Below are positions 1,013-58,448 of a stretch of 64,000 nt of DNA, one piece after another; position 1 is the stretch's first letter; each line of letters opens with the position of its first letter. The notes beneath the pieces are model-generated. The model had not been told where the DNA came from. It worked only from the letters and a program-made list of their open reading frames with translations, and made no database searches. The translations under genes were made by a program, and so were the position numbers. Source of the stretch: a virus (taxonomy: Duplodnaviria; Caudoviricetes); IMG/VR virus record IMGVR_UViG_3300021387_001774, positions 199,687-263,686 of that record; one strand, written 5' to 3'.

Positions 1013-1579
1013 ATGAAAGAGTTCGAAATCAAAAATCCAATCAACGAAAATGATCAAGAATTTGATCTTTTCTGTGACGGTATGTATAAAGATTGTTATC
1101 AAGGTTTATTATATCTTGAAGATATCTTTGTAGGTGTAACATTCTATAATAATGGTAGATTTTTACCTTATACTTTTGTAATCCCAAAAGCTTCTACAGA
1201 AGTAGCTATTGAGAAAGACACAGGAATTATTCGTGCTACGTCTAATAGTTGGTTTAAATTTGATTTGCCGGATTTCCCAGAAATCAAATTTCAAATATAC
1301 GAAACGTTGTATAGATATTTCCAAAAAGCTTTCAAGCATTTTGTAAATGGTACAAATTCTGGTTACAACGAATCTAAAATTCAATGGAATTATGTAACAT
1401 TTGAACCTGTAAGGTTTAAATTGGAAAGTCGTTCTAATGTAACTATAGGATTTTTAAATAATGTAAAAGGTTACGTTAGTATAAACGATGATATTGTAAA
1501 GAAGTATGCTGAATCTAATTTGGAAGAACTCGATAAAGCTGTCGATAAAGTCCAATTAGATCTACCATTTGAAGATTAA
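1013..1579 (+). CDS. hypothetical early protein
   Basis: GGAGG RBS downstream of an early promoter. Confidence 0.8.
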   Translation: MKEFEIKNPINENDQEFDLFCDGMYKDCYQGLLYLEDIFVGVTFYNNGRFLPYTFVIPKASTEVAIEKDTGIIRATSNSWFKFDLPDFPEIKFQIYETLYRYFQKAFKHFVNGTNSGYNESKIQWNYVTFEPVRFKLESRSNVTIGFLNNVKGYVSINDDIVKKYAESNLEELDKAVDKVQLDLPFED

Positions 1580-8258: not shown

Positions 8259-8319
8259 TAGCAGAGGAAATACTTGTATCCAAAAATCCCATCCCACTCA
8301 TACTGTATGACCTCTGCTA
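8259..8319 (+). ncRNA. hairpin RNA with C-rich loop in the tRNA-Asn 5' leader
   Basis: TAGCAGAGG/CCTCTGCTA stem directly after late promoter 8247; loop AATCCCATCCCACTC. Confidence 0.45.
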
Positions 8320-8330
8320 TTTTTATAAAT

Positions 8331-8404
8331 GTCTCTTTAGCTCAGTTGGTTAGAGCTCCAGCCTGTTAAGCTGGATGTCGTAGGTTCGAGCCCTACAAGA
8401 GACG
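8331..8404 (+). tRNA. tRNA-Asn(GTT)
   Basis: Full cloverleaf GTCTCTT/AAGAGAC, CCAGC-CTGTTAA-GCTGG, GGTTCGAGCCC; no encoded CCA. Confidence 0.95.
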
Positions 8405-8488
8405 TTCTGCTAACAAATAACATTCATAGGCTGGTGTGTTTTTGTTCTCCTTTTTATGGTAGCTTGTTAAGCTACCATATTTTTTTTT
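8405..8488 (+). ncRNA. candidate anti-SD sRNA S2 in the tRNA-Asn trailer
   Basis: Weak hairpin, then TTGTTCTCCTTT, then terminator ATGGTAGC/GCTACCAT with a T tract. Confidence 0.45.
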
Positions 8489-8526: not shown

Positions 8527-9882
8527 ATGCATAGACATTATGAATATTTTTTCGATATATTATTTACGATACCTGCTAGAAACATTTCTTTTAAACCTTA
8601 TTCAATGGTAGAATTTGTTAAAGAATGTAATTATCATAATAGTACCATTCCTTCATATAAACTTAAATGTAAAATAAAAGATAAGAATTTAAACGTTTTA
8701 CGTTTATATGATAAAGAAGTAATGGTAAATATAAAACAATATATGTATTATGGAGAAAAAAGAGAAAATTTAAGTGATTGTAAAATATTATTGGATCTAG
8801 ATTTTGCTTGTTACTTTGATAAGAATTCGTTACCTAATTATATGGCTTCTGCTAAAAAGGCTAGTCCTACAATAGGTGAGAAAGACGAATATTTACCAAA
8901 TACTCTTGGTGTAGAAACACCACACGAAATTCAATTTTTTCTTTTATTAAAAGATGATTTGAAAATGAAAACATTTATACATAATTATGTATTTGGTTCA
9001 GAAGAAATGCCTGCGTCAACTATAGATGCGGTAATGACTATAGTTGAACAGAATCCATATGTAAAAGAAGTACTTATAGATCCTCCAGATAATACGAATA
9101 AATATACAGATATTATAGTTGAACCAGCAGAACTAAAAGATGCTATTAAAAATATACAATATAAATATGGTATATATTCTAAAGGATTAGAATTATTTTT
9201 TGATAACGGAATGCTTTATATTTTAAATAAAATGGAAATAAATCATTCTAAACGAGAGAAAGAATTAAATGTTATTCAGATAAGAGCTAATGAAAGAACA
9301 GATATACCAAGTACAATAGATTATGCTCTAATTAATGAAGACGAAGGATATATAGGATATGAACGAAAAACAACAGTTTCTAAAATGGATTTTGAAGCAA
9401 TAGAAGGTATTTACTCTGGTGATAAATTTGTATTTAGCAATTATGGAACGGTTATAAATTCTATGTTTGGTGATAAAGGTAAAACAACATTTGTTTCACC
9501 ATTGAATAGCGTTGATAGACCTAGACCAGCTAGAGTAGATGTAGGAGTTAAAAAAATATTGGATTACGATATGCTAAATAATCCATTTAATATGAGTTCA
9601 TATATGTTCGAAAAGACACCGGGTGTACCTATAAGTTTAGCTATAACATCTATGAATCCTGAACATTTTACTCCTAATAAAATGGTTAAGATAGGTTTTG
9701 ATACATCCGAATCACAAAAGATGTATTCTGGTTTATATAATATACAATCTGCTTCTTTTGTTTATAGACAAACTCAATCTAATCCTGCAAAACGTTTTAA
9801 TGCTTTTGGACATGCTGTATTAGTATTGGGTAATAAACAAGAAGGATATGATAAAGATTATGAACCATTAAAAGAAAAATAA
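8527..9882 (+). CDS. hypothetical protein, possibly tail/baseplate hub-like
   Basis: 451 aa ORF with GAGG RBS; function is a guess. Confidence 0.7.
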   Translation: MHRHYEYFFDILFTIPARNISFKPYSMVEFVKECNYHNSTIPSYKLKCKIKDKNLNVLRLYDKEVMVNIKQYMYYGEKRENLSDCKILLDLDFACYFDKNSLPNYMASAKKASPTIGEKDEYLPNTLGVETPHEIQFFLLLKDDLKMKTFIHNYVFGSEEMPASTIDAVMTIVEQNPYVKEVLIDPPDNTNKYTDIIVEPAELKDAIKNIQYKYGIYSKGLELFFDNGMLYILNKMEINHSKREKELNVIQIRANERTDIPSTIDYALINEDEGYIGYERKTTVSKMDFEAIEGIYSGDKFVFSNYGTVINSMFGDKGKTTFVSPLNSVDRPRPARVDVGVKKILDYDMLNNPFNMSSYMFEKTPGVPISLAITSMNPEHFTPNKMVKIGFDTSESQKMYSGLYNIQSASFVYRQTQSNPAKRFNAFGHAVLVLGNKQEGYDKDYEPLKEK

Positions 9883-9920
9883 AATAAACAGGGAGATATT
9901 TCTCCCTGTTTATTTACTTA

Positions 9921-11258
9921 TTATAAAGGTTTAAAAATATTTAAAGTTGAACACAGAGAATAAGTCAAATTATCCACTGGATGCAAACTATTTACGGTAT
10001 TTTGATTATTAAACATATCAACAAATGGATTACCAGTTGATACATTAGCTTTCATAACTCTAGAATATTCTTTATTTCTAGCTTCACGTTCAGCAGACAA
10101 TTTTTTATAAAGTTTTGGCAAGAAATCTGGATTATTAATGATATATCTTTCGTAATCATTTCCTCCACATCTTACTTTATTTTCATTAGGAAGTTCTTCC
10201 CAATAAGGCAAATCTTCACGCAAAAGATTAGCCAAAGATTCAATGAATCTAGGTTGTTCATCGATCATTTCACCAAAACACATGGAGTTATAATGCCAGA
10301 AACCAAGAACATGACCAATCTCATGTATTAAGACTTTATGAATTACATTACCTTTAGTGTTTTTAAAATATTGTTCTCGAATTTTAACAATACTTCCATG
10401 ACCTAAACCTCTATAGATATTAGCTGGCCACCATCCACCTTGAGTAACAGCGGCACCAATCTTGTCACTATTTGGACAAGCACCAAGACTAAATGTGTTT
10501 CTAGTTTGTGGACCACCATAATGTGATGAACCAATTCCCCATACTTTTAATAAATGATTTAAATCTTCATCTTCAGTAAGGTCAATACACATGATTTCTT
10601 CTGGTGTATTCGTTGGGAAATTTTTATAATTATTTGTACCTGCGCCAGTATCATCTTTATATTCTGGTAAGATTCTAAATTTTTTACCAACAATTTTTTC
10701 GAAATTACGTAAAGTTTTTACCATTTCTTCAGATTGCATAGTGTATGCTAGATTAGTGATAGCCATTAAAATATTTTTAACGTCTTCTTTTGTTTGTCTT
10801 TTCTTTGCACCATATTCGCAATACATTGGAATAGTAACATTCCAACAAATGTTCATATTTAGAAGTTTTTTATATCGTTCATCTTCTACTTCTACACTCA
10901 TTTTGAATTCGTTATATTTATCCATAACTCCAGTCTTAATGATAATATTCTCCAAAGGTTCAATAGTTAATGTAAAAATTTTATGTTTACCTTCAGCAAG
11001 CACTGGATATTCAAAATATACATCAACTTCGAGTGTGTATAATGAATAATTCATCAATTCGATAGTATCTTTATATTCGCCATATTTAACTACTAATGGA
11101 TCTCTAAGTGGAATAACTTGACCAGAGTACCAATGATCTGTACTAGGATCCAACACATTTTTAGATGTTATTGAAGGTTTGATAAATTTGAAGGGGTTCT
11201 CATAAGTAGGAACAGATTCAGAAACCTCAACAACATCGTCATTAAAAATTTGACTCAT
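9921..11258 (-). CDS. zinc metallopeptidase (metzincin-type)
   Basis: HEIGHVLGFWH = HExxHxxGxxH followed by a Met (YNSM); late promoter at 11318. Confidence 0.8.
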   Translation of the reverse strand: MSQIFNDDVVEVSESVPTYENPFKFIKPSITSKNVLDPSTDHWYSGQVIPLRDPLVVKYGEYKDTIELMNYSLYTLEVDVYFEYPVLAEGKHKIFTLTIEPLENIIIKTGVMDKYNEFKMSVEVEDERYKKLLNMNICWNVTIPMYCEYGAKKRQTKEDVKNILMAITNLAYTMQSEEMVKTLRNFEKIVGKKFRILPEYKDDTGAGTNNYKNFPTNTPEEIMCIDLTEDEDLNHLLKVWGIGSSHYGGPQTRNTFSLGACPNSDKIGAAVTQGGWWPANIYRGLGHGSIVKIREQYFKNTKGNVIHKVLIHEIGHVLGFWHYNSMCFGEMIDEQPRFIESLANLLREDLPYWEELPNENKVRCGGNDYERYIINNPDFLPKLYKKLSAEREARNKEYSRVMKANVSTGNPFVDMFNNQNTVNSLHPVDNLTYSLCSTLNIFKPL

Positions 11259-11385
11259 ATTACTCTCCGATAAAAAAGAATTAGAAAGATCATAACGACC
11301 TTTCTATATTTTAATGTTATTTAAATTACATATTATATTCGTGGATAGTAGAAATACTATACTAAATAATATAAGGAAGGAAGAA

Positions 11386-11652
11386 ATGGTATTTTACAAT
11401 TCATTGACCGGATATGTAAACGTTAAGGATCTTTCAAAAGATGTTTTTGAAAGTATTATGAAAAAGATTGGATGTGAATATTCTATCCATAAAGAAGATG
11501 GGGAAGAATACTATAAATTCACATACAAGCGTACAAACAATTTTTCAATGTCTAATGGAACTGCAGCTAAATTAGATTTTAGTGGAGTTACAATGGAAGA
11601 TGTTGATTTAGTCGCCAATCAATTAACTGAAACTGTTGATAATTTGGTTTAA
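11386..11652 (+). CDS. hypothetical early protein (start reassigned to ATG 11386)
   Basis: AAGGAAGG RBS before ATG 11386; the ORF-track start overlaps the promoter. Confidence 0.75.
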   Translation: MVFYNSLTGYVNVKDLSKDVFESIMKKIGCEYSIHKEDGEEYYKFTYKRTNNFSMSNGTAAKLDFSGVTMEDVDLVANQLTETVDNLV

Positions 11653-11879: not shown

Positions 11880-13082
11880 TTAATTCATTGTTGCTACAGT
11901 TATTGATTTTTTTGCTCTAGTTATACCAGTATATAACCAGCGGAAATATATGTGTGATGGTATTCTGTCTTCGACTACTAGTAATACATTATCGGCTTCT
12001 GATCCTTGATATTTATGTACAGAAGCAGCATATCCATAGTCAATCATACATATATCACCTAATGTTTCATCATCTATATTTTCATTATATAGCTCTTCTA
12101 TAAATGCTTCTTTAGCTGGATTCTTTTGATACTGCTCAAATATTTGACAGAAGCATTTAGGTTTCAATGATAATTCAGGATTAGTATTATCTAAGAAATC
12201 TGGAGTGAAATTTAGATCGACTAATTCTAAATCATTATAATCTGTAATCTTTGCATCTTGATTTACAATACCAAACATTCCATTTATAATATAAATAGGA
12301 ATATCTTGGTAATCAATCATGTAATTATAATTATTCATTAAACACATAATTCGTTCACCTTTTACTGGATAAACACTTGTATATCCTTTAAGTTGACGAA
12401 TATATAAATTTAATTTTCTTCTCATAGCATTTGAAAAACAAAGTACTATGTCGTAATCTAATATTTTTTCACCAATTTCTTCAAAATGTACCACTTTACT
12501 AGCATTATAAGTTCCATATTCCAATTGTTGACAACTTCTAGCTATACTAGCTAATTGTAATATACCACTAGAGTCATCTTGTCTCATAGGTTTTGATAAG
12601 AATACATCTGAATATTTTTCAGGTTCTGCAATCAAAAAATTAATTTTTCCGAGACAAGGTAACTGAAACCAGTCACCTAAACAAATAGTCGGAACTCCAA
12701 ACGATAATATATCTTGTAGCATTTTTTCTGTAACCATAGAAACTTCATCTATAACTATAAGTTTTATATTTGGATTAATATGTTTTTTGAGATTAAACCC
12801 AAATGAAGTTCTCGTTTTGAATACAGAATAAAATGTTTTATGCACTGTGTTAGCTGGATTACCTTTCATTCTTAGAACTAAAGCTGCTTTACCAGTTAAT
12901 GTACAGAAAATTACATCTTGATTATTTAATCCTAGCATTTTAATAATGATACTAAGTACAGTTGATTTACCAGTTCCTGCTAAACCAAATATAGTAAAAT
13001 ATGGTTTAAATACAGAATCAGTAAAATACCATTGTACACATTTCTTCACAGCGTCTAACTGTTGATCATTTAAAGTAATCAT
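11880..13082 (-). CDS. SF1B helicase (Dda/RecD-like)
   Basis: GLAGTGKST Walker A, DEVSM, GDWFQL, HKYQGSE, YTGITRAK. Confidence 0.9.
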   Translation of the reverse strand: MITLNDQQLDAVKKCVQWYFTDSVFKPYFTIFGLAGTGKSTVLSIIIKMLGLNNQDVIFCTLTGKAALVLRMKGNPANTVHKTFYSVFKTRTSFGFNLKKHINPNIKLIVIDEVSMVTEKMLQDILSFGVPTICLGDWFQLPCLGKINFLIAEPEKYSDVFLSKPMRQDDSSGILQLASIARSCQQLEYGTYNASKVVHFEEIGEKILDYDIVLCFSNAMRRKLNLYIRQLKGYTSVYPVKGERIMCLMNNYNYMIDYQDIPIYIINGMFGIVNQDAKITDYNDLELVDLNFTPDFLDNTNPELSLKPKCFCQIFEQYQKNPAKEAFIEELYNENIDDETLGDICMIDYGYAASVHKYQGSEADNVLLVVEDRIPSHIYFRWLYTGITRAKKSITVATMN

Positions 13083-13100
13083 ATATTGTTGTGTTTCTGG

Positions 13101-13216
13101 AAAAAAATAAAAAGGAGGAGATCGCTAACTGGGTGGGAAGAAATGCGACCTCCTCCTAACATAAGGAAGAAAAATGGGGAAAGCTATTAGAGAATGGACA
13201 CTCTATAGCTTCCATG
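13101..13216 (-). ncRNA. candidate antisense sRNA S3
   Basis: Own early-type promoter (13232-13218), 5' hairpin, single-stranded CCATTTTTCTTCCTTATGTT, terminator AGGAGGAG/CTCCTCCT with a T tract; no ORF. Confidence 0.7.
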
Positions 13217-13290
13217 TAAATAATATATAATTATAAATTCTTTTATTTTTATTCTAAAATATATCTATATAATGTTTTAGGAGTTTAATT

Positions 13291-13815
13291 ATGTCTAATA
13301 AAAAAGAAAAAGATGTAGAAATGACTAATTATCAGGAATATTTTAAACCTGAATTAGATGCACTTGATAACCAATATAATAAGAATGAAAAATTGTATGA
13401 TGAAGTGCATAAAAGTCTTGAGAAAAAGCTCGATACACTAGAAGGTAAATCTATGTTTGGTTCTGGTTCACCACATCGTGATGTAGCAGAACTTGGTAAA
13501 GTGCTTAATGATATTCGTGGTAATCAGGTTCAAACTATTAAAGAAAGGACCAATGTAAAGAAGACTATTAAAGATTTTGAATTACGTGAACGTAATCTTA
13601 ATACTGCTACTACTGAAACAGAAGCACTTCAGGAAGTTATGAAGAAAGTAGTAACAAGTATTCAATATAGTAATCCTACAGCTGTTTTACCTACTGCTAG
13701 TGAAAAAGCTAATAATGATGGCATAGAAAAACTTAAAGATCTTGATCCTCAAAAGTTAGGTTTGAATGAGAATGATCTAAAGATGATTGACCGTTTTAAG
13801 AAAGCAAATTCTTAA
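13291..13815 (+). CDS. coiled-coil hypothetical protein
   Basis: AGGAG RBS. Confidence 0.8.
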   Translation: MSNKKEKDVEMTNYQEYFKPELDALDNQYNKNEKLYDEVHKSLEKKLDTLEGKSMFGSGSPHRDVAELGKVLNDIRGNQVQTIKERTNVKKTIKDFELRERNLNTATTETEALQEVMKKVVTSIQYSNPTAVLPTASEKANNDGIEKLKDLDPQKLGLNENDLKMIDRFKKANS

Positions 13816-25157: not shown

Positions 25158-25481
25158 TTAAACTTTAAGATAGAGTAGAAATACTCTATCTTAAAATTTC
25201 TGTTCAAACCCCATGTCTAATTATATATTATATTAATGAACACATATATAAAACATCTGTTTCATAAGCCTAAATGTGTTCAAGGGGGTGAATTAATATG
25301 GATACAGATGTAGAGATTGACATCGAAGGTTATATTGAATCTAATCTATAAAGATTGATTCGACCTTCGATGAGAAATTTTATTAAAGAAAGGGATCAAA
25401 TGATCCCTTTCTTTTTTTTAATTATATATTATATTAGTGAGTGGGAAAACAAAGAAATATATCCTACTAAGGGAGAAATTT

Positions 25482-30716: not shown

Positions 30717-30738
30717 ATTCATAACATAGGAGGAAAAT

Positions 30739-31485
30739 ATGGACGAAATGATTATTAGATGGAACAATGGAAAAATCAATTATGATGAATCTATTGGCGG
30801 AACATTCAAGATTGAATTGATTGCCAATACGTTTAAATTTAAACGTATTTCGGGATCAGCAATTCCAACTGATCAGTTGATTGGGTTCCTATGGTTCTGG
30901 CCTGGTCTTGAAAAGGCCAGAGAAAAGGCCAAGAATCTGCGGAGAATAAATCCGTGGAAAGTCAGTCGTAGAGATGGAATGTCGGGTTGTTCCGACTGGT
31001 ATATCCAGTTTTTGGATAGGCTCGGGTTCGTTAGAAAAACCAAGACCATCATCCATTCATCAATGAATGGAAAACAAAATGAGGACATAGATGTCTGGGT
31101 TAAAGACCTCTATGATGTTCTGTGGTGGATGAAGAAGGAAGGATGTTTTCCTTCTTCATTTGAAGGAGGACCTGATCCTGATTGTTTCGCATTTCTTGAT
31201 ATAACCGATGAGGTTATATCAAGACGAAAAGAATTCAACGAAGGTTCACTCGAACCTGAATGTGGGTTTGGATACGAGGAAGCGCTGATCGATGAAGATC
31301 TTCTTTATAAAGATCACTTAAATGACTATTCTAACTACACTCCTACTACTGAGGAGAAGGAGGAAGAGGTTGACGATAATGGGATCCGCCCCGTCGTTCC
31401 CGTCTCTTCTAACTATCGAGGAAAAGATGGGATCCGCCCCGTCGTTCCCGTCTCTTCTAAAGAGGATGAAGACGAATTTGTTTGA
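30739..31485 (+). CDS. hypothetical early cassette protein, acidic C-terminus with duplicated GIRPVVPVSS
   Basis: AGGAGG RBS; Trp-rich. Confidence 0.85.
   Translation: MDEMIIRWNNGKINYDESIGGTFKIELIANTFKFKRISGSAIPTDQLIGFLWFWPGLEKAREKAKNLRRINPWKVSRRDGMSGCSDWYIQFLDRLGFVRKTKTIIHSSMNGKQNEDIDVWVKDLYDVLWWMKKEGCFPSSFEGGPDPDCFAFLDITDEVISRRKEFNEGSLEPECGFGYEEALIDEDLLYKDHLNDYSNYTPTTEEKEEEVDDNGIRPVVPVSSNYRGKDGIRPVVPVSSKEDEDEFV
31379..31460 (+). repeat. 34-bp GC-rich direct repeat x2 (period 48)
   Basis: ATGGGATCCGCCCCGTCGTTCCCGTCTCTTCTAA at 31379 and 31427. Confidence 0.95.
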
Positions 31486-36804: not shown

Positions 36805-37098
36805 AGTATAACTCCATAAAATATAAATAGTAGAGTTATTTCTAACTCTCCATTTATATAATATGTAAATAAAAAAAGAGCGGTAGGCTTATCCTACCGC
36901 TTATTTGTTTTATAATTAAAACAAATCATTAAATCATAGAGTGATTATAAATTCCTGGGAGGGGAAAACAAGATGGCTATTTCACATGTTTAACAAAAAG
37001 AAACTTGTGTAACGATTCCACTCTAAAAATCGTAGGGCCTAACCATCTATATTTATATATTCACATATTTATATAAAATTAAATTTATAGGAGATATT

Positions 37099-37909: not shown

Positions 37910-38041
37910 AATAAAGATGGGGTATATTTACCCCATCTTTTTTATTTATATATTATATTAATGAAAGATTCGTTGTATCTTATTATAATAATTATTGAAG
38001 TAGAGATGATACTACTATAAACATAAGGAAGGAATTGGAAT

Positions 38042-38479
38042 ATGACTAAAGAAGAAAAGAAAGAATGTATGAAGAAGTATCGTGAAACTCATAAAGAACA
38101 GATCAAAGCTCAGAATAAGAGGTATTATGATACTCATAAAGATAAAAGCAAAAAATATTATAAAAATAATAAAGATAAAATTATTGAACAGACTAAGAAA
38201 CGCTATGAATCTACTAAAGAACTAGTTTTAAAATTTAATAAATATCGACGATATTTTTATAAGAAATTTTATAGGTTTATTACTTTAAAGAATTATATTA
38301 TTATAATGAAACTAGAAGATGAATCATTAAAACGTTCTATTATGGCTAAGTTAGGTCATGGCATCATAGATCAAGATGAAGCAGTAGCATTATCAGGTAT
38401 GATATTTACAAAAGATGATCTGAAAGAAATGAATGAGTGGCTTTATAATGTCTGTAGATGTAAAAGTAATTTATCTTGA
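38042..38479 (+). CDS. basic K/Y-repeat protein, paralog of 56392..56886
   Basis: KKYRETHK-type repeats; shared C-terminus NY.IIMKL.D.SLKRSIM.KLG.G.I..DEAV.LSGM. Confidence 0.85.
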   Translation: MTKEEKKECMKKYRETHKEQIKAQNKRYYDTHKDKSKKYYKNNKDKIIEQTKKRYESTKELVLKFNKYRRYFYKKFYRFITLKNYIIIMKLEDESLKRSIMAKLGHGIIDQDEAVALSGMIFTKDDLKEMNEWLYNVCRCKSNLS

Positions 38480-46406: not shown

Positions 46407-46501
46407 TGAAACATAATAATTATAAGAGGGATAATAAGAGAAATAAAACCCCACCTCAGAGAAGAGGTCTACCGAAAGGAGATATAAACACAAGGGAAGA
46501 A
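46407..46501 (+). repeat. 95-bp perfect repeat with 57782..57876 (structured leader copy D)
   Basis: Direct sequence identity. Confidence 0.95.
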
Positions 46502-46505
46502 AATT

Positions 46506-46910
46506 ATGAAGAAAATTGAAGATGGAATCCATGACGTATCAAACTACATGTTGGCTAATCGCCAGATATTCACTGTAGAAGAAATGGAAGAGTTGAGGAA
46601 TCAATTTCTCAATATAAAGCCAGGTTATTATGTTAAACTGTGGGTTTTCAATGATGAACTATGTATACAGGTAGCCGGCGATTTTATTCTGTTAACGAAG
46701 GTCGATAAGACCGACGCAATCTTCAATCATATGGATTTAGGATTTAAAATCCGATCCATACATGGAGATTCTCTGTACGGAGAAATCGTGGATGTCTCAA
46801 AAGATATCTACGATACTAACGGTTCCCGGGTAACGCCTAAGGATTGGTTATATAGCCTCGATCATAATAGCATAAATTATGATCGAGCTTTAACTGGCCA
46901 TCGTCTTTAA
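46506..46910 (+). CDS. hypothetical early cassette protein
   Basis: Between leader D and trailer copy 2. Confidence 0.8.
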   Translation: MKKIEDGIHDVSNYMLANRQIFTVEEMEELRNQFLNIKPGYYVKLWVFNDELCIQVAGDFILLTKVDKTDAIFNHMDLGFKIRSIHGDSLYGEIVDVSKDIYDTNGSRVTPKDWLYSLDHNSINYDRALTGHRL

Positions 46911-47846: not shown

Positions 47847-47972
47847 AAATTCTAATTAAAAGAAAGGGCTTCGTCCCTTTCTTTTTTATAATTATTTTTA
47901 CAATTATATATTATATTAATGTAAAACCTTAGAGTTTTACAAATCTTAATTTAAGGGTGGGTAAAAGGAGAA

Positions 47973-48308
47973 ATGGTGACATTCGTTTTTAGCCATAAGA
48001 GTCAATCTGACGCGATCTCAAGTGCAGAGTATTTGCACAAAGCCATGCAGGGCGACAAAGCATATGTTAACGGTGACATATGTATTTGTGTTTCCACAAT
48101 TGATGGAAAAACAAAGAAGCCAACCTGCGAAGACGGCAATTTGGATTATGCCTTTAACGGAAAGGTATTACATCATTGTGTTCTTCTGGATGTGGGCACA
48201 ATTGATAATCCAGTAGAACCAATTGTAATGGTTCTAGACCATCCATTGGACGATAAGTATAACAGTACTTACGTTCATAAGACTTATGGTCTTGATGAGA
48301 TCGACTAA
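47973..48308 (+). CDS. hypothetical early protein
   Basis: AAGGAG RBS; early promoter at 47902. Confidence 0.8.
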   Translation: MVTFVFSHKSQSDAISSAEYLHKAMQGDKAYVNGDICICVSTIDGKTKKPTCEDGNLDYAFNGKVLHHCVLLDVGTIDNPVEPIVMVLDHPLDDKYNSTYVHKTYGLDEID

Positions 48309-56256: not shown

Positions 56257-56391
56257 CTAATGAAAAGAAGAGGCGTTAACGCCTCTTCTTTTTTAATTAT
56301 ATATTATATTAATGAGTACATTGTACTTATTATTAATATTATTAATCGAAGTAGAGATGATACTACTATAAACATAAGGAAGAAATGAAAA

Positions 56392-56886
56392 ATGGCAGAG
56401 AAGAAAAGAGAGTACATGAAGAAATATTATGATGATCACAAAAATGATCTCAAAGATTATCATAAAAAATATCGTGAAGCTCATAAAGATAAAGTGAATG
56501 AATATAGGATGAAATCTTATAGAAAGAATAGAGATAAAGAGAAAGAAAGATTTAAAAAATATAATGAAAAGAATAATGCTAAAATTCTTGAAAGAAAAAG
56601 GGAATATCGTAAAAATAATCATGAAATAGTAATGTTGGGTAATAGAATTTGTAAATATTATTCTCGCGATTTTTACCGTTATATTTCCCTAGAAAATTAT
56701 TTAACTATAATGAAACTAGGAGATTATTCATTAAAACGTTCTATTATGATTAAGTTAGGTAAAGGAACTATACTAGAAGATGAAGCTGTAATTTTATCTG
56801 GTATGGTATGGACCGAAGAAGATCAGAAACAATTAAATGAATATTTGAAAAGAAGTAAAAATAAAAGACCTTCTTCTAAACCTTGA
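56392..56886 (+). CDS. basic K/Y-repeat protein, paralog of 38042..38479
   Basis: Shared C-terminal block, leader and terminator. Confidence 0.85.
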   Translation: MAEKKREYMKKYYDDHKNDLKDYHKKYREAHKDKVNEYRMKSYRKNRDKEKERFKKYNEKNNAKILERKREYRKNNHEIVMLGNRICKYYSRDFYRYISLENYLTIMKLGDYSLKRSIMIKLGKGTILEDEAVILSGMVWTEEDQKQLNEYLKRSKNKRPSSKP

Positions 56887-57781: not shown

Positions 57782-57876
57782 TGAAACATAATAATTATAA
57801 GAGGGATAATAAGAGAAATAAAACCCCACCTCAGAGAAGAGGTCTACCGAAAGGAGATATAAACACAAGGGAAGAA
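57782..57876 (+). repeat. structured leader copy E (identical to 46407..46501)
   Basis: Direct sequence identity. Confidence 0.95.
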
Positions 57877-57878
57877 CT

Positions 57879-58448
57879 ATGGAAAAATTTAGATATGACC
57901 TTGGTGGTACAGAGTTTAGCGGAAAGGCAGAGAGATGGTTTACTGCTTTGAATAAAGCGGCAAACTCAACCTGTCGTTATGAAGAATGGAACAGTGATCA
58001 GTGGGGTAGGCCTTTCGGCCACCACGCAGAACTGGTGGCAAATTCTAAAGAAGACCTTGAAAAAGGTCTTAAAATTCTGGAATCATCCGGCAGATTCGAA
58101 AGGATCCCCGGGGATCCAAGAACTTTAGCTAGGTGGATTGCACCATCTAGAGGTAAAACACCATTCGCATATAATATGCGAAAGCAAGACCTGGCGAATC
58201 AGGTTAAGAAAAAGTTGAACCTAAATGATCGGCAATGGGCCGATCTTGCAAATGGGAAACCAGTATTTATTGGGGAGCAGATACTTCTCAATCAGTCATG
58301 GTTTTATGGCTATGGCCCAGATGGTGATGGGCCACACAAATGTGTGGTGTTCATATCATCTTGGCCTACGCAAAGGTTAGTTCTACAAAGAACTGACGAA
58401 AGAGGGTTTCTGGACGACAGTGTCCAGAAACGATGGGGTATCAAGTAA
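57879..58448 (+). CDS. hypothetical early cassette protein
   Basis: GC-rich relative to the genome; between leader E and trailer copy 3. Confidence 0.85.
   Translation: MEKFRYDLGGTEFSGKAERWFTALNKAANSTCRYEEWNSDQWGRPFGHHAELVANSKEDLEKGLKILESSGRFERIPGDPRTLARWIAPSRGKTPFAYNMRKQDLANQVKKKLNLNDRQWADLANGKPVFIGEQILLNQSWFYGYGPDGDGPHKCVVFISSWPTQRLVLQRTDERGFLDDSVQKRWGIK

Follow-up and report, generated by a model that had tools for sequence, protein, structure and literature searches.

LhrC of Listeria monocytogenes binds Shine-Dalgarno (SD) regions through C/U-rich sites located in a single-stranded stretch and in the terminator loop (PMC4132741). The small RNA (sRNA) described here resembles LhrC and the UCCC-motif class (RsaE, RNAIII, SprD, FsrA) in its predicted C/U-rich pairing against ribosome-binding sites (RBS), but it is not a member of the LhrC family. 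LhrC is a multicopy, LisRK-induced RNA of Listeria with three redundant UCCC sites, whereas the present RNA is phage-encoded, preceded by an early promoter of a phage polymerase, represented by a single copy (no second significant one), and would address the phage's own repeated leader. Its two seeds are non-redundant, with UCCC located in the terminator loop, a CUUCCUU core in the linker, and neither UCCC nor a seed in the 5′ loop. An Rfam search of this stretch of the window returned no LhrC and no C4 match at E≤10, and over seven homologous loci nothing except tRNAs reached the gathering level. The best Rfam match at the locus, ctRNA_pT181 (RF00242), has a similar two-hairpin antisense layout, but this identity was rejected on its score (26.3 bits versus a gathering score of 56, E 0.29) and on its neighbours (a helicase and a 174-aa protein). 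Furthermore, ctRNAs are encoded in cis and fully complementary to the rep leader, whereas the window sRNA is predicted to act on dispersed leaders.

C4 RNA represses a phage gene by pairing via exposed single-stranded segments, and it is cut from a precursor by RNase P. In phage P1, this antisense RNA controls ant (PMC8201110). While C4 is concerned with lysogeny of a temperate phage and with one operon, the RNA described here has its own promoter and terminator, at least eight dispersed putative targets, and belongs to an AR9-like phage. Two other RNAs are trans-acting and multi-target, as predicted for the window sRNA: SviR of the satellite PLE, which lowers translation of ICP1 phage targets across genomes (bioRxiv 10.1101/2022.04.08.487710), and PreS of lambda, which both represses and activates, its shown targets being host genes (10.1101/2024.10.31.621285). 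Neither has been described as addressing a repeated private leader. Neither a target nor a mechanism has been assigned to the sRNAs mapped in the jumbo phages 201phi2-1 and phiKZ (PMC11512511, PMC8244752), which are likewise short non-coding transcription units of two-polymerase giant phages. Temporal control of the AR9/phiKZ type has been described almost entirely as transcriptional (PMC5312081), and our literature search, of incomplete coverage, found no lytic-phage sRNA repressing the phage's own early genes in trans.

The window (the whole stretch of DNA analysed, 64,000 nucleotides) is the final 64 kb of a virus record of 263,686 bases and 29.5% GC. The sequence is that of a 264-kb AR9/phiR1-37-like jumbo phage from the rumen. 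Its genome encodes phage β′-like RNA polymerase subunits (top matches in phiR1-37, BpSp and Staphylococcus jumbo phages), the sequencing runs containing parts of the phage are from sheep and bovine gut, and its close relatives stem from metagenome assemblies named in a way that suggests rumen studies. We estimate a probability of roughly two in three that the locus encodes a trans-acting sRNA repressing translation of the phage's own early cassettes, as a timer or a ceiling. Judged from sequence, it represents a real sRNA family that is new, while its mechanistic kind is known. It displays features of the anti-RBS class, both in its sequence (own promoter, intrinsic terminator, no conserved ORF) and in its predicted fold (an unpaired seed complementary to the SD-to-AUG region of distant mRNAs). 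The novelty lies in the RNA family, the phage setting and the lineage-specific fit to a repeated leader, the chemistry being that of known bacterial anti-RBS sRNAs.

The RNA unit and its neighbours

An earlier note on this DNA had described an early-type promoter pointing into a short RNA, and all sequence strings quoted there were found in place. The promoter 13-mer (13232–13220) has 39 exact copies genome-wide, nearly always preceding genes. It fits the AR9 early consensus, AAATATATATTAT-(6N)-G+1 (PMC5312081), and an early promoter is found at every homologous locus. The predicted sRNA comprises 113 nt of the minus strand, from G13213 to the U tract at ~13101. The parts of the unit and its neighbours are as follows.

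13220–13232, minus strand: early promoter 13-mer of the virion RNA polymerase type; predicted +1 at G13213
13179–13213, minus strand: 5′ hairpin of 13 bp (predicted fold; relatives always have a hairpin, of freely variable sequence)
13158–13177, minus strand: seed 1, unpaired 20-nt C/U linker complementary to the SD, spacer and AUG of early leaders
13113–13157, minus strand: terminator stem of 13 bp (arms 13145–13157 and 13113–13125) closing a 19-nt open loop; homologs show compensatory changes of the pairs
13131–13137, minus strand: seed 2, the CCCACCC of the terminator loop; near-invariant among homologs and more conserved than any other motif
13101–13112, minus strand: U-rich terminator tail, seen in the sequence of all homologs
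13084–13095, minus strand: late-promoter match AACA-N6-TA (AR9 late consensus) directly before the helicase start codon
11880–13082, minus strand: Dda/RecD2-like helicase (PHROG 325, E 5e-81), the downstream neighbour, outside the RNA
13291–13815, plus strand: conserved phage protein of 174 aa, the divergent neighbour, used as anchor for locating homologous loci

The predicted fold (−38.2 kcal/mol, z about −6.9) was equalled by none of 200 shuffles, and the unpaired probability of the linker is mostly 0.9. The proposed order of hairpin, linker and terminator is upheld by the fold, but the accompanying statement that the region has no ORF needs correction, as two short ORFs overlap the sRNA, one of 18 codons with an RBS (13174, plus strand) and one of 19 codons (13215, minus strand). 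Neither is conserved, the homologs of the plus-strand ORF being 4, 1, 1 and 5 codons long or unrelated frames. This disposes of a reading in which the plus strand encodes an 18-codon peptide and the leader match merely reflects shared RBS ancestry; although an ORF with an RBS-like sequence does exist, the early promoter and the U-tail are both on the minus strand, and we consider this reading scarcely credible. One contig of 151 nt (depth ~2), obtained from RNA of bovine gut, covers 13041–13181 across the terminator; its strand and ends are not readable, and it may represent DNA carry-over or read-through.

The homologous loci, located via the divergent 174-aa gene in relatives sharing 78–95% protein identity, provided seven distinct variants of the unit (window, L007, L008, L009/L058, L059/L060, L005 and L002-4). 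These are 53–82% identical, with a constant order of parts and fold z-scores from −5.4 to −8.8. Their stems contain many two-sided changes that keep the pairing, and the linker and loop are unpaired in all seven. An alignment-based count (66% paired, with a covariation score above all 500 shuffles) was obtained from an alignment misregistered by one column in three rows, and for this reason the per-sequence stems were used as the basis. Five of the seven variants have an anti-AUG at start-site spacing from the anti-SD. A covariance model built from six homologs recovered the held-out L005 (E 0.007). Covariance-model searches of the whole genome revealed no further significant copy, those of AR9, LPJP1, SA1 and phiR1-37 gave no homolog (best E 0.38), and BLAST of the sRNA locus against cultured phages gave no match.

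In the window, L007, L008 and L009, the unit shares the strand of the helicase and lies 19 nt upstream of its start, which would be compatible with a 5′ UTR or an attenuator of the helicase. However, the unit occurs without a downstream helicase in L002-4, L005 and L059-60, while in L001 the helicase and the 174-aa gene are back to back without the sRNA. As three variants lack the downstream helicase, the unit is not the helicase 5′ UTR, and its stand-alone nature, as originally suggested, is corroborated. The match to the late consensus that lies below the terminator, likely the promoter of the helicase itself, also argues against a helicase leader or attenuator, which appears highly improbable. 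This match is conserved in L008 and L009, and as GACA in L001, where the sRNA is absent; a genome-wide comparison of spacings did not clearly favour N6 (of 171: N6 37, N5 8, N7 7, N4 26 and N8 41). As predicted here, the sRNA is a free-standing RNA gene.

The helicase itself is ~35% identical to its LPJP1, AR9 and PBS1 counterparts. It has no SD, and the predicted late-promoter +1 sits 2 nt ahead of the AUG, which would produce a near-leaderless mRNA, the relatives being alike in this respect. In L007, the helicase is broken into two ORFs (8598–9925, minus strand), and the sRNA region happens to be in frame with it. The same locus of L010 (58% clade; 9640–9885, minus strand) has an early promoter, a single hairpin of great length, a short linker of pyrimidines and a terminator that lacks CCCACCC. 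This slot may thus be occupied by an unrelated sRNA.

The linker and the repeated early leaders

The plus-strand image of the linker had been reported to match the region at 56371 (15 contiguous nt, or 20 nt with a 5-nt loop-out) and at 38020 (12 nt), and both matches were reproduced. The 12-mer AACATAAGG[G/A]AG has nine occurrences in 264 kb, one in the sRNA gene and eight in a single leader family (family 1); its exact A form was observed 7 times versus 0.07 expected. For the ranking of targets, 225 phage start regions were compared by hybrid energy and with opening energies (accessibility) added. All eight family-1 leaders ranked 1–8 of 225 with accessibility and within 1–11 by hybrid energy, and early genes constituted 15 of the 20 top-ranked linker targets (hypergeometric p 6e-7). 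In contrast, the plain 16S anti-SD used as a control retrieved 5 early genes out of 20 and ranked the family-1 leaders 56–218. None of 300 linker shuffles keeping the UCCU core equalled the real linker. The family-1 RBS regions are unusually open (opening cost of 0.3–2.4 kcal/mol versus a median of 5.0) and pair weakly with the 16S tail, a combination suited to fast translation followed by antisense shut-off. The predicted linker targets are listed below.

56371–56394, plus strand: target, the RBS in the family-1 leader of K/Y-repeat gene 56392 together with its start (−20.7 kcal/mol, first of 225 with accessibility; pairing site −21 to +3)
38020–38044, plus strand: target, family-1 leader RBS of K/Y-repeat gene 38042 (rank 4 of 225 with accessibility, −19.5)
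Outside the window: six family-1 leaders, genome starts 2915 (minus), 48111 (minus), 82143 (plus), 90615 (plus), 126963 (minus) and 137829 (minus)
11368–11388, plus strand: likely target, early gene 11386 (89 aa) at its RBS and start (third by hybrid energy, eleventh with accessibility)
46494–46508, plus strand: weaker target, family-2 leader RBS of gene 46506
57869–57881, plus strand: weaker target, the RBS in the family-2 leader of gene 57879 (hybrid energy −18.4, fourteenth of 225)
30724–30741, plus strand: possible target, RBS and start of gene 30739 with a family-2-like leader (rank 8–9 of 225)

Six of the eight family-1 leaders precede K/Y-repeat genes and the other two carry unrelated proteins as cargo; the target is therefore the leader and not the K/Y protein family. 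Thus, the earlier view of a multi-target sRNA controlling one family of early genes is supported by the ranks of the eight leaders, but what these genes have in common is the leader rather than the protein. Since the eight leaders are copies of one cassette, the number of independent target classes is only about 3–4. A C-terminal domain is shared by four of the six K/Y-repeat genes; in the two window proteins (38042–38479 and 56392–56886) it is conserved over ~60 residues, is limited to this phage clade (16 clusters, 70–94% identity) and has no Pfam match. The target proteins (89–274 aa) have no family match where scanned, with neither a Pfam nor a PHROG family and no atlas match at 0.9. A GTDB scan for the leader produced three chance matches and no host, and a viral scan with the family-2 motif produced one related contig (L011), the remaining matches being without the promoter.

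For gene 11386, the previously noted image of the terminator loop at 11379–11388 is present, but the linker is the stronger partner of this gene (−21.3, versus −13.1 for the loop). In L007 and L008, the homologs of 11386 provide the best site at the locus for the own linker. The four family-2 leaders rank 13, 14, 19 and 24 for the linker and 4, 6, 7 and 23 for the loop with accessibility. The loop-derived string GGGAAGAA, which the note had placed at leader RBSs, was found at 46494 and 57869, but taken alone it is near chance (16 seen versus 8.2 expected), and the loop part that holds it is not conserved among homologs.

A third repeated early leader with one hairpin was observed at 36848 of the window (minus strand) and at genome positions 48683, 62715 and 197538. 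It precedes four short genes, three of them with similar N-termini, and is not a strong target of the sRNA.

Linkers and leaders across lineages

Covariation of linker and leader was assessed in three lineages, with sRNA and leader paired within fetched loci only. In L002, a family-1 leader with an altered RBS is located 3 kb from the sRNA, and the L002 linker is its exact 13-nt complement. The window linker scores −22.3 with its own leader versus −12.4 with that of L002, and the L002 linker −15.6 with its own leader (13 contiguous pairs) versus −11.0 and −9.0 with the window leaders. The L005 linker reaches −14.7 with the family-2 leader right behind it, compared to −8.6 for the window linker at this site. 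Of five relative loci, four had an early-gene start as the best site of their own linker. The L009 locus held no site beating −9.3 for its own linker, and the predicted L009 target was not found among the relative loci examined. For the L008, L009 and L059 linkers, the fetched loci mostly did not yield own targets, a search for the predicted L008 target giving nine unrelated chance matches.

In the distant genome G001 (46% complete), a non-coding unit with an early promoter (C1:30636–30850; L099 ~1354–1570, plus strand) contains CCCACCC, an anti-AUG/anti-SD linker and a terminator, in an order different from that of the window sRNA. Among 123 genes, the unit has its best site (−23.5) at the start region at 95380, in a gene run downstream of an early promoter, and it places the window leaders at ranks 73–201. 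Early-gene enrichment for this unit (6/10) hardly exceeds that of the anti-SD control (5/10), and the unit is therefore regarded only as a candidate distant member of the family.

In the proposed scheme, by analogy with AR9, the injected virion RNA polymerase would transcribe the sRNA from its early promoter. The predicted fold and its conservation suggest that the 5′ hairpin and the terminator stem protect the RNA and keep the 20-nt linker unpaired. The linker would form 15–20 nt of pairing with the SD-to-AUG region of the eight-copy leader and, less strongly, with the second leader family and a few early genes, and as in LhrC/RsaE-type RNAs this pairing may block 30S binding. Synthesis of the cargo proteins would then be confined to the first minutes and cease as the sRNA, presumably stable, builds up. 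A timer or a ceiling is the likely outcome because the sRNA and its targets share one promoter class. The sRNA is probably an RNA off-switch for early genes. Tentatively, and at somewhat less than even odds, we suggest further that the repeated leader and the sRNA form a co-evolving address and key, both rewritten in each lineage, in which any gene behind the leader cassette would fall under the off-switch and the second seed would be reserved for a structured mRNA. This would amount to a post-transcriptional layer of early-gene shut-off in two-polymerase jumbo phages, one that might also discriminate against kin. For this system there are named candidate targets with exact registers of pairing, and the relatives supply natural pairs, both cognate and non-cognate, which makes RNA shut-off in jumbo phages testable by reporter swaps without phage culture.

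It is conceivable, albeit unlikely, that the sRNA is real but acts mainly on host mRNAs, with linker and loop blocking G-rich host RBSs and the phage-leader match being secondary. C-rich unpaired motifs of low-GC bacterial sRNAs bind SDs broadly (PMC4132741), any anti-SD-like linker pairs with many mRNAs, and early timing of the RNA fits host takeover. Moreover, CCCACCC is present in relatives for which no phage partner was found, its complement in G001 occurring only inside the two C-rich RNA elements. On the other hand, the linker changes between lineages in step with the phage leaders, fits a private phage 12-mer otherwise absent from the genome, and differs in its behaviour from a generic anti-SD. 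The energies across lineages also bear on RNA-based superinfection exclusion, in which accumulated sRNA would silence the early cassettes of later kin genomes more than it times its own. The leaders of L011, L061 and L067 are bound by the window linker at ~−20 kcal/mol and L002-type leaders escape, and a single promoter class for sRNA and targets would suit such a role. Nevertheless, self-regulation already explains the same-genome match of linker and leader with no extra assumptions and many essential early genes are untargeted, so that exclusion of kin as the primary role seems quite improbable.

The C-rich loop and gene 47973

The earlier note had cited the loop image GGAAGAAATG. The conservation of the loop lies instead in CCCACCC, a motif overlooked in the note, which points to early gene 47973. 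The complement of CCCACCC has three occurrences in the genome, one of them 4 nt above the SD of this gene.

47955–47975, plus strand: candidate seed-2 target by hybrid energy, early gene 47973 (111 aa) with its GGGTGGG tract, SD and start

Among the 225 start regions, 47973 is the best for the loop by hybrid energy (−18.9 versus a mean of −7.3, sd 2.8). The G-tract lies at the foot of an mRNA hairpin, its opening is predicted to cost about 6–7 kcal/mol, and the site drops out of the loop's top 18 once accessibility is counted. In this hairpin (47921–47997, plus strand), the SD and start codon are predicted to pair with codons 3–8, an arrangement kept in the orthologs of L064–L070 (72–85% identity), where the G-tract is kept and the 5′ hairpin is changed. 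It is plausible from these data that a second seed lies in the C-rich loop, with the G-tract by the 47973 RBS as its most likely partner, and its pairing there would either lock or loosen the mRNA. The mRNA's own hairpin could also explain the conservation of the G-tract. Activation of 47973 by loop binding was considered but is not supported: a forced-open G-tract cheapens RBS opening by only 1–4 kcal/mol, and not at all in L067.

Only 2 nt separate the SD of 47973 from the AUG, and 5 nt from the following GUG, which may be the true start. A structure model of the protein (pLDDT 67) gave no clear fold match (best Z 5.2). The third complement of the loop motif is a doubled G-tract at genome position C1:114363–114376 (minus strand), ~40–50 nt upstream of a 291-aa gene, and is third among the loop sites once accessibility is counted.

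The loop motif is conserved and unpaired in all homologs and recurs in a second hairpin before tRNA-Asn, as would suit a role of the unpaired C/U stretches as protein decoys or 16S-tail mimics with no mRNA pairing. We regard this explanation as very improbable, because the linker, unconserved in sequence, nonetheless follows the changes of the leader, which a protein site would not do.

The second hairpin with a C-rich loop (8262–8320, plus strand) is located upstream of tRNA-Asn (8330–8405). Its orthologs have CCCUCCCACCC in the loops of L001, L009 and L010, including genomes without the sRNA at the helicase locus, and the loop of the window hairpin contains an 8-nt complement to the predicted 5′ end of an early transcript starting near 25439.
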